Of a stretch of DNA of 18,419 bases, positions 187 through 824 are shown in pieces. The position numbers and the translations under genes were made by a program. The notes under the pieces were generated by a model that saw nothing but the letters and a program-made list of their open reading frames with translations, was not told where the DNA came from and ran no database searches. Origin of the DNA: Escherichia coli (lineage in GTDB: Bacteria; Pseudomonadota; Gammaproteobacteria; Enterobacterales; Enterobacteriaceae). The stretch is from NCBI RefSeq assembly GCF_003334255.1, contig NZ_QOWU01000074.1; one strand, given 5' to 3'. Position 1 is the stretch's first letter. Each line of letters begins with the position of its first letter.

Positions 187-429
187 ATGTTCGCTTTGAT
201 TCAACGCGGTCAGATATACACGGACAGAGCCGGATACCCCGTGGTGATTACTCGCATCACTGAGCACTCAGTGTTCTTTCGACGGATGGACGGACGATCC
301 GGGCGGGTACGCATTGGTGAGTTAAACTGCCTGTTCGAACATATTGACCACCAGGAGTACCGCAAAATTCTCGCGGACACTGAGCAGGAAAAGCACCTGA
401 AAAAATTACGAGCCATAAAAAGGAAGTAA
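187..429 (+). CDS. Hypothetical prophage protein, about 80 aa (MFALIQRGQIYTDRAGYPVV…)
   Basis: ORF-track frame 151-429; ATG at 187 chosen as the likely start, 5 nt after the preceding stop. Basic C-terminus (KKLRAIKRK). No family recognised. Confidence 0.45.
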   Translation: MFALIQRGQIYTDRAGYPVVITRITEHSVFFRRMDGRSGRVRIGELNCLFEHIDHQEYRKILADTEQEKHLKKLRAIKRK

Positions 430-432
430 AGA

Positions 433-579
433 ATGAATAAAGCATTTGAACGATGGGTCCACCAGCGTTACGGCAATCGCTATGACCTGACGCGAGATGT
501 TGACGGCTTCTACTGTCGTGAAGTTGTGAAGCGAATGTTTGAAGTGTGTTGCCACTGCCGTGGGCTGAGTGTTGTGTGA
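433..579 (+). CDS. 48-aa Cys-containing small protein (…FYCREVVKRMFEVCCHCRGLSVV)
   Basis: ATG at 433 with AGGAAG Shine-Dalgarno (422-427) overlapping the stop of the previous ORF; TGA at 577-579; C-x10-CCHC pattern. Not in the ORF track (under 60 aa); I translated it by hand. Confidence 0.4.
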   Translation: MNKAFERWVHQRYGNRYDLTRDVDGFYCREVVKRMFEVCCHCRGLSVV

Positions 580-587
580 GGTAATAC

Positions 588-824
588 ATGGGCAATGTGA
601 TTCAACTGGCTCCCAATGAATGGGTTTGTGAAAGCGTTCTTATCGCAATTACCGGGCTCAAACCAGGCACAATTCTTCGGGCCCGGAAAGAATGCTGGAT
701 GGTTGGAAGAGAGTATATTCACGTATCACCAGACGGTAATCCAAAGCCTTCCAGTGAATGTATGTATAACAGAAAAGCAATAGATGCCTGGGTCGCCTCA
801 ATGAAAAACAAACAACCCAGGTGA
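588..824 (+). CDS. xis: Excisionase-like DNA-binding protein (lambda Xis-like)
   Basis: 78 aa, immediately upstream of int; GAGG Shine-Dalgarno before the ATG; motifs resembling lambda Xis as I recall it (…EW…RKECWMVGREYIHVSPDG… vs lambda …EW…VRECRIF…GREYLFHESAV…). Confidence 0.55.
   Translation: MGNVIQLAPNEWVCESVLIAITGLKPGTILRARKECWMVGREYIHVSPDGNPKPSSECMYNRKAIDAWVASMKNKQPR

Follow-up and report, generated by a model that had tools for sequence, protein, structure and literature searches.

Int-proximal genes of a phiP27-like prophage in Escherichia coli yecE: a DUF1233-family excisionase and the small accessory genes upstream of it

Introduction

Small genes packed against the recombination genes of a temperate phage raise the question of whether they belong to the recombination machinery or are separate genes that happen to share its place in the genome. 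We examined such a locus in an 18,419-nucleotide stretch of Escherichia coli DNA (assembly GCF_003334255.1, contig NZ_QOWU01000074.1; hereafter the window), in which three plus-strand open reading frames (ORFs) at 187-429, 433-579, and 588-824, encoding proteins of 80, 48, and 78 amino acids (AA), lie directly upstream of an integrase gene, int. An original prediction made from the sequence alone described them as a cassette that included a possibly metal-binding mini-protein and a lambda-Xis-like protein. Here we asked what the three genes are and whether they form a unit. We consider it highly probable that the locus is the end of a phiP27-like prophage in yecE, with a DUF1233-family excisionase and, ahead of it, independent accessory genes at the tail of an operon.

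Results and Discussion

The prophage end and its chain of small genes

Sequence comparison assigns positions 1-2222 of the window to a phiP27-like temperate phage integrated in E. coli yecE, of which they form the int-proximal end. Positions 90-880 matched the E. coli FORC_069 chromosome at 100% identity, positions 162-2200 were 99.8% identical to phage PhiR49_2, and positions 349-2200 were 94% identical to the Shiga toxin 2e (Stx2e) phage phiP27. The int gene (880-2193, plus strand) encodes a 437-AA tyrosine integrase that matched phrog_1 (integrase, E = 2e-86), and it shares 94% nucleotide identity with the int of phiP27. The att core TTAACTGCGTG at 2212-2222 (plus strand) forms the prophage/chromosome junction in yecE and equals the 11-bp sequence that the phiP27 record annotates as attL, and beyond it lie the host genes yecE (DUF72), yecN, cmoA, and cmoB. 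The yecE gene is an insertion site of Stx phages, phiP27 being the first case described (PMC8065619). Among 5426 complete E. coli genomes, 843 carried part of the stretch and 194 carried at least 80% of it.

The three small ORFs are separated by spacers of 3 nt, between the 80-AA stop codon and the 48-AA ATG, and 8 nt, between the 48-AA stop codon and the 78-AA ATG. Duplex energies for pairing of the Shine-Dalgarno (SD) with the anti-SD, computed over the 20 nt upstream of the 80-, 48-, and 78-AA starts, were -5.5, -6.3, and -6.9 kcal/mol, compared with a mean of -2.1 kcal/mol over the whole window, where energies of -5 or lower occurred at 11.8% of positions and of -6 or lower at 5.8%. The GAGGT SD of the 78-AA ORF overlaps the TGA of the 48-AA ORF, and int has a GGAGGU SD of -10.6 kcal/mol. 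Counting a further ORF of 27 AA (99-182) described below, the chain runs through an ATGA overlap and then spacers of 4, 3, and 8 nt. Coordinates, spacers, and SD energies agree with the tight packing first described, and the integrase gene comes after all three ORFs, as expected of int-proximal coupled phage genes.

In FORC_069 all three ORFs are annotated by RefSeq with the Prokaryotic Genome Annotation Pipeline (PGAP) at equivalent coordinates and, followed by int, are named in order 'DUF4222 domain-containing protein', 'hypothetical protein', 'excisionase family protein', and 'tyrosine-type recombinase/integrase'. The window's products are identical to those of the FORC_069 coding sequences WP_000457723.1 (DUF4222 protein), WP_001030156.1 (uncharacterised phage protein, phrog_3871), and WP_000528718.1 (xis), and each of the three ORFs matched one phage protein family end to end.

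No sigma-70-like promoter was found in a scan of the plus strand of positions 1-880, the sole terminator-like match in that interval was a weak 6-bp stem at 258-273 within the 80-AA ORF, the frequency of such matches across the scanned region did not exceed that in shuffled sequence, and an Rfam scan of positions 1-2400 at E <= 1 gave zero matches. With no promoter, strong terminator, or Rfam family in these scans, the locus is consistent with a place at the close of the early-left operon that is reached by read-through, and we propose that the three ORFs and the 27-AA ORF would be the last genes of this leftward early operon, with transcription running towards int and translation coupled from one gene to the next. 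A candidate CII-type pI promoter (TTGC-N6-TTGC) in or upstream of xis was rejected and was not used: a single site with one mismatch was found there (539-552), and the 32 such sites in the window, compared with 31.6 expected, are a chance count.

The 78-AA protein is a DUF1233 excisionase

On the strength of its sequence relationships, the 78-AA protein encoded at 588-824 (plus strand) is the phage's excisionase, or recombination directionality factor, Xis. It matched Pfam DUF1233 (PF06806, 'Putative excisionase') with E = 1.1e-32 and 111.9 bits over model positions 1-69 of 70, and phrog_539 ('excisionase') with E = 5e-40. A single related solved structure was found, the 'putative excisionase' 2kvv (chain 2kvv_A) in the Protein Data Bank (PDB), with E = 8.4e-4 for the single sequence and 6.9e-9 for a 32-sequence profile. 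All 78 residues were identical to the xis product of PhiR49_2, the first 77 were identical to the xis product of phiP27 (L02), and identity to the Xis of phage 933W was 53%. The int gene begins 55 nt downstream on the same strand and encodes the cognate integrase, and xis and int constitute one inherited block, common to phiP27, PhiR49_2, and CharmingMan, with the nucleotide matches H1-H4 spanning both genes. These matches and the position upstream of int uphold the excisionase role first proposed for this protein.

Within the DUF1233 family alignment, the GREY motif corresponds to residues 40-43 of the 78-AA protein, with G40, E42, and Y43 invariant and R41 nearly so, and the further invariant residues are L18, G23, G27-T28-I29, A32-R33, W37, H45, P52, E57-C58, Y60, and W68. 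Set beside PhiR49_2 xis, phiP27 L02, 933W Xis, and 2kvv, the protein is a plain member of the family that shows no notable difference from them. Our literature search on DUF1233 returned no papers, and documented excision activity of the family was not found in the searchable literature. By analogy with characterised excisionases, we infer that the protein would be DNA-binding, would bind attR at its P arm, and would act with Int to drive prophage excision after induction.

Relationship to lambda Xis

The original prediction called the protein lambda-Xis-like on account of its GREY-containing core, and part of this comparison survives. Using a lambda Xis sequence checked against PDB 1pm6, BLASTP gave no alignment with the 78-AA protein, and a Pfam scan of the protein up to E <= 10 reported DUF1233 alone and not the lambda Xis family PF07825. 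When the DUF1233 family profile was aligned to lambda Xis with hhalign, only the hexapeptide GREY(I/L)(H/F) was matched (6 columns, 2.6% probability), and a PDB search with the same profile retrieved 2kvv and no lambda Xis entry (1lx8, 1pm6). A by-eye overlay of 'RKECWM--VGREYIHV' on lambda VRECRIFPPPVKDGREYLFH suggests that the two proteins correspond in the wing and at the end of the recognition helix. Profile-profile comparison with HHpred has grouped PF06806 with the winged-helix excisionases lambda Xis and TorI (PMC3064807), and we accordingly describe the 78-AA protein as having a putative winged-helix fold, based on its homology to 2kvv and these published links.

Likenesses to lambda Xis (PF07825, 'Excisionase-like'; PDB 1lx8, 1pm6, 2ief) thus comprise the role, the site upstream of int, the size (78 versus 72 AA), and the GREY(I/L)(H/F) segment. 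The lambda xis and int genes overlap, whereas a gap separates them here. A longer basic tail had also been claimed for the 78-AA protein. Its sequence does not bear this out, with only 10 residues after W68 (VASMKNKQPR, 3 of them basic), and the tail appears both shorter and less basic than that of lambda Xis; across the DUF1233 family the length and sequence of the C-terminal tail vary. The shared motif, the role, and the winged-helix superfamily known from the literature therefore stand, while the sequence family is another one. The 78-AA protein shares its role and probably its fold with lambda Xis, lies outside the lambda Xis family, and should be labelled a 'DUF1233-family excisionase' rather than 'lambda-Xis-like'.

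The 80-AA DUF4222 protein and its distant relative RgdR

The 80-AA protein (187-429, plus strand) matched Pfam DUF4222 (PF13973) with E = 9.8e-14 over model positions 2-53 of 53, and phrog_285 with E = 1e-33. A search of 1.84 billion representative proteins returned only 16 at E <= 1e-3, which indicates a narrow subfamily of DUF4222. A model built with AlphaFold2 (AF2) from a shallow alignment of 26 sequences predicted a small β-barrel of SH3/Tudor-like type followed by a long, basic helix at the C-terminus (residues 55-79).

Among DUF4222 proteins, the one that has been characterised is RgdR (ECs1581, 99 AA), which is encoded on a phage-inducible chromosomal island (PICI), CP-933C, activates type III secretion of the LEE (locus of enterocyte effacement) through Ler, and affects motility (PMC10877973, PMC3378721, PMC6092414). 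Its name comes from an RGD motif, and substitutions of the first residue of this motif (R20) change the activation of type III secretion, and their effects differ between the variants of enterohaemorrhagic E. coli (EHEC) and of commensal strains (PMC3378721). Alignment of the 80-AA protein to Sakai ECs_1581 was confined to the N-terminal core, with 41% identity over 27 residues (RGQIYTDRAGYPVVI with RGDIYRDQYGGTVMI), and the RGD of ECs1581 at residues 20-22 was aligned with an RGQ at residues 7-9 of our protein. Proteins of the RgdR type are about 99 AA long, more than 77% similar to ECs1581, and encoded on a PICI/P4-like island, and the 80-AA protein departs from this description. Both proteins are small, basic, encoded by mobile elements, and assigned to DUF4222 by Pfam, but they differ in length and in setting, which is a lambdoid early-left operon near xis in one case and a PICI (Sp7) near the primase gene in the other. 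By sequence, we regard the 80-AA protein as a distant relative of RgdR. In the Sakai genome, rgdR (ECs_1581; locus L005, 23305-23604) is the last of five short ORFs (ECs_1577 to ECs_1581), which overlap or abut in a chain, and lies directly upstream of the PICI primase gene; the packing of this chain resembles that of the window's ORFs.

Because RgdR, the only relative that has been studied, reprograms host transcription, and because the predicted fold combines a barrel with a basic helix, we infer that the DUF4222 protein is most likely a host-directed modulator, acting through protein-protein or nucleic-acid binding and made early after induction. A more specific proposal is that DUF4222 proteins act like the Tudor-like RNA polymerase-interacting domains of UvrD/PcrA, CarD, and Mfd, binding host RNA polymerase and altering host transcription, which would explain the global effects of RgdR. 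The predicted barrel is Tudor-like in class, but small β-barrels are all alike: structure-comparison Z scores fell smoothly across TraI, PWWP, KOW, Tudor, SH3, MscS, and ribosomal barrels, a Foldseek search with the model ranked ribosomal and PWWP barrels first (best E = 4.6e-3, none at or below 0.001), and sequence identity to the polymerase-interacting domains was 6-10%. A profile search of the PDB with DUF4222 likewise gave nothing below E = 0.5. The SH3/Tudor-like small-barrel class is thus reasonably secure as a prediction, a specific functional analogy is not, and we consider polymerase binding doubtful. Slightly more doubtful still is its extension to the whole distal part of the pL operon, in which the 27-AA membrane peptide, the DUF4222 protein, and the 48-AA hairpin would form a host-takeover set, and DUF4222 proteins including RgdR would mimic the UvrD/PcrA, CarD, and Mfd domains, dock on the β subunit of RNA polymerase, and retune host transcription. 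If DUF4222 proteins were such mimics, this would provide a mechanism for RgdR, a virulence regulator described in 2011.

The 48-AA protein and its unlikely metal site

The 48-AA protein (433-579, plus strand) matched phrog_3871 with E = 7.5e-33, its residues 1-48 covering profile positions 1-48 of 48. Its gene occurs in 44 phage records, and we found 104 homologue clusters in Enterobacterales, from Escherichia, Shigella, Salmonella, Klebsiella, Citrobacter, Enterobacter, Cronobacter, and Pantoea. A copy at 83% identity to the enterobacterial ones is also present in the record of Elizabethkingia phage EKP1 (OM284015.1), which is unexpected in a phage of Bacteroidota and points to a wrong host assignment or to enterobacterial prophage sequence.

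The window's copy reads FYC28-REVVKRMFEV-C39C40H41C42, that is, C28-x10-CCHC, and this string had been taken as a cysteine/histidine cluster that could bind a metal. We counted the conservation of each residue over 91 homologue clusters. The most common residue was C at position 28 (87%), C at position 40 (81%), H at position 41 (81%), and C at position 42 (95%), and a consensus C-W-C-H-C was retained in 50 of the 91 clusters, which is what favors a zinc- or metal-binding mini-protein that uses C28 and the C-terminal cluster. Against such a site, position 39 was W in 88 of the clusters (97%) and C in only 2, and the copy in PhiR49_2, otherwise identical to ours, also has W39. Positions 28, 40, 41, and 42 were each substituted in 5-19% of clusters by residues that are not ligands (R, Y, S, F, A, L), with the losses scattered and uncorrelated rather than joint. 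The invariant residues lie elsewhere, with F5, Y17, D18, and L19 conserved in 100% of clusters and E6, Y27, E30, V32, and M35 in 97-98%. The same length and invariant core (F5, E6, Y17-D18-L19, D22, Y27, R29-E30, V32, R34-M35) characterise PHROG 3871, along with phrog_17609, which comprise small proteins of lambdoid phages and siphoviruses, for example ORF3 of BP-4795 and STM0895.1n of Fels-1, and the window's copy differs from these relatives in its rare, strain-specific W39C, which creates the 'CCHC' string.

Structural and profile evidence points the same way. The spacing is C-x10-CCHC with no CxxC of the kind found in zinc knuckles, and a Pfam scan of the protein and 41 family members gave no family and no zinc-finger match. 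An AF2 model from a 41-sequence alignment (mean predicted local distance difference test score 80.7) has helices at residues 2-13 and 29-42 with a conserved loop between them, sets residues 39-42 one after another along a single helix, and puts C28 three to four turns away. A Foldseek search of this model against the PDB gave no match (best E = 2.7). TAL-effector repeats, returned by a PDB sequence search at E values down to 7e-20, were rejected as a lead, each stretch contributing 0-3 bits and the score being a sum over 15-23 repeats weakly like VVKRMFEVCCHCRGLS. We conclude from residue conservation that a zinc site in this protein is unlikely, the string being real in the window but not a feature of the family, and that the protein is better described as a predicted two-helix hairpin (helix-loop-helix), for which a host-directed role may be envisaged.

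An operon tail rather than a functional cassette

The tight translational coupling of the three genes, the constant order in which many prophages carry them directly upstream of xis-int, and the distance of about 1.6-2.2 kb that separates the 48-AA gene from the int-proximal record end in most of its 44 phage records could be read as signs of one module in which the 80-AA protein, the 48-AA protein, or both regulate excision by Xis and Int. A synteny comparison among phages argues otherwise. Just upstream of the xis start lies a mosaic junction, where other phages match the window only up to about positions 563-592, and the block of DUF551-like ORF, 27-AA peptide, DUF4222, and 48-AA genes is joined to other int regions in the PhiR5 and PhiR12 phages, BP-4795, YYZ-2008, and VT1-Sakai. 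The 48-AA gene is present without DUF4222 in Fels-1, Klebsiella phage P18-100, and CharmingMan, and it also occurs beside unrelated integrases, beside an integrase without an annotated xis (PhiR12_1), in the nin region (PhiR5_2), and between structural genes, away from any xis or int, in Citrobacter phage K1M and Salmonella phage CF-SP1, which are non-integrating siphoviruses. The gene for RgdR adjoins the primase gene of its PICI and not xis. Because the genes assort independently among phages, we interpret the locus as an operon tail and not as a functional cassette; regulation of Xis/Int by its neighbors is very unlikely, and the 80- and 48-AA proteins would be products of independently assorting accessory genes outside the recombination machinery.

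A similar place is occupied in lambda by the ea/exo-xis region (ea8.5, ea22, orf60a-73), where non-essential small genes lie in the distal pL operon, from the recombination genes to xis, and Ea22-like and EaA-like genes are found just upstream of our locus in related records. For the 80- and 48-AA proteins, no sequence relation to solved structures, of the Ea8.5 type or others, was found. A PADLOC scan of the four small proteins gave no defence-system family, and an NCBIfam scan of the small proteins gave no match.

Pairwise ratios of nonsynonymous to synonymous substitution (dN/dS) against diverged homologues were 0.04-0.30 for the 48-AA gene, 0.13-0.29 for the 80-AA gene, and 0.19 for xis. 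All three ORFs are under purifying selection, and this range marks the 48-AA ORF, at the level of its sequence, as a real gene. That one or more of the small ORFs arose by chance and is no gene is hardly tenable: they are short, the phiP27 record carries no 48-AA annotation, and PhiR49_2 annotates just a 52-AA version of the DUF4222 protein, but full-length ORFs are intact in Escherichia, Klebsiella, Salmonella, Citrobacter, and Pantoea, in line with the conservation across related phages that the original prediction called for, dN/dS stays low while dS is saturated, SD sites are present, and the AF2 models of the 48- and 80-AA proteins are confident.

An unannotated 27-AA peptide and the annotation of related records

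Upstream of the 80-AA gene, positions 99-182 (plus strand) contain an unannotated ORF for a 27-AA hydrophobic, single-pass membrane-like peptide (MSWPDAIVTLGVVFAAAFVVFSICRWG), with the SD AGGAGGUG at -11.6 kcal/mol, the strongest of the small-ORF set. It is coupled on both sides, its start forming an ATGA with the preceding stop codon and its own stop lying 4 nt before the 80-AA ORF. The preceding ORF, of which the window holds the 3' end (1-102, plus strand; ATGA at 99-102), belongs to the upstream early-left operon and is named 'phage protein' in FORC_069 and annotated in close relatives as 'DUF551 domain-containing protein'. Intact 27-AA ORFs were found at the same position in PhiR12_1 (93% identity), PhiR49_2 (52%), and YYZ-2008 (48%), sharing the motif M-x-W-P-[DE]-A...[YF]-S-[IL]-[CF]-R-W-G, and in Klebsiella phage P18-100 a shorter related ORF, with 22 codons before the stop, lies directly upstream of the 48-AA gene. 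Its dN/dS was 0.22-0.29; it had no PHROG match and no PGAP annotation. In P0069 and P0014 the 27-AA sequence appears spuriously joined to the N-terminus of the 48-AA protein.

Other records also deviate from the gene structure described here. In the phiP27 record the intact 48-AA gene (L002, 3085-3231) is not annotated, and its DUF4222 gene, 66% identical to ours (L002, 2839-3078), is annotated as L03 with a 41-codon N-terminal extension (2716-3081). In the PhiR49_2 record DUF4222 is annotated only as a 52-AA C-terminal part (L001, 3110-3268).

Attachment arms and the host side of the junction

The P arm to which Xis would bind lies at the other prophage end and hence outside the window. In phiP27 and PhiR49_2 this arm contains TGGGRCA(T) in 4-5 tandem repeats, some 130-180 bp away from the core, and we regard them as candidate Int arm-type or Xis binding sites. 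The tandem direct copies, TTTTGGGGCAT or TGGGRCA, fall within about 60 bp, a palindromic pair included, at positions 42383-42447 of the phiP27 record (L013, 484-548) and 40808-40869 of the PhiR49_2 record (L012, 509-570). In the window, a single inverted copy of the same motif, TGGGGCAT, lies in the P' arm within int's 3' end (2140-2147, minus strand) and is a candidate arm-type protein-binding site. As an arm site judged by window statistics, TGGGGCAT was rejected, its 2 occurrences compared with 0.94 expected being not above chance.

On the host side, the PGAP start of yecE (DUF72) falls within the 3' end of the phage int (window 2172-2945, plus strand; L004, 8083-8853), giving a 19-nt overlap, while a mechanical ORF list places the start of yecE at a GTG (2220-2945). 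From its sequence, the prophage appears to give yecE a new start and N-terminus, so that yecE may stay expressed in lysogens. Further downstream, FORC_069 carries IS621 between cmoB and torZ (L004, 11054-12496), which the window lacks (5146-5309), cmoB ending at 5145 and torZ starting at 5310. The window and FORC_069 are therefore different strains that share this prophage end.

Conclusions

The finding itself is ordinary and already known, namely an annotated xis-int end of a prophage whose type and insertion site are both well known. The analysis corrects two tempting readings of the locus, the 'CCHC zinc mini-protein' and the 'lambda Xis homologue', and agrees with the original prediction that the other two genes are uncharacterised accessory genes, here assigned to DUF4222 and phrog_3871. 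Several phage records mis-annotate the stretch, and the 27-AA ORF is unannotated in every examined record that carries it. For the DUF4222/RgdR family, which is linked to the regulation of EHEC virulence, the predicted Tudor/SH3-like barrel may offer a lead at the level of the fold.

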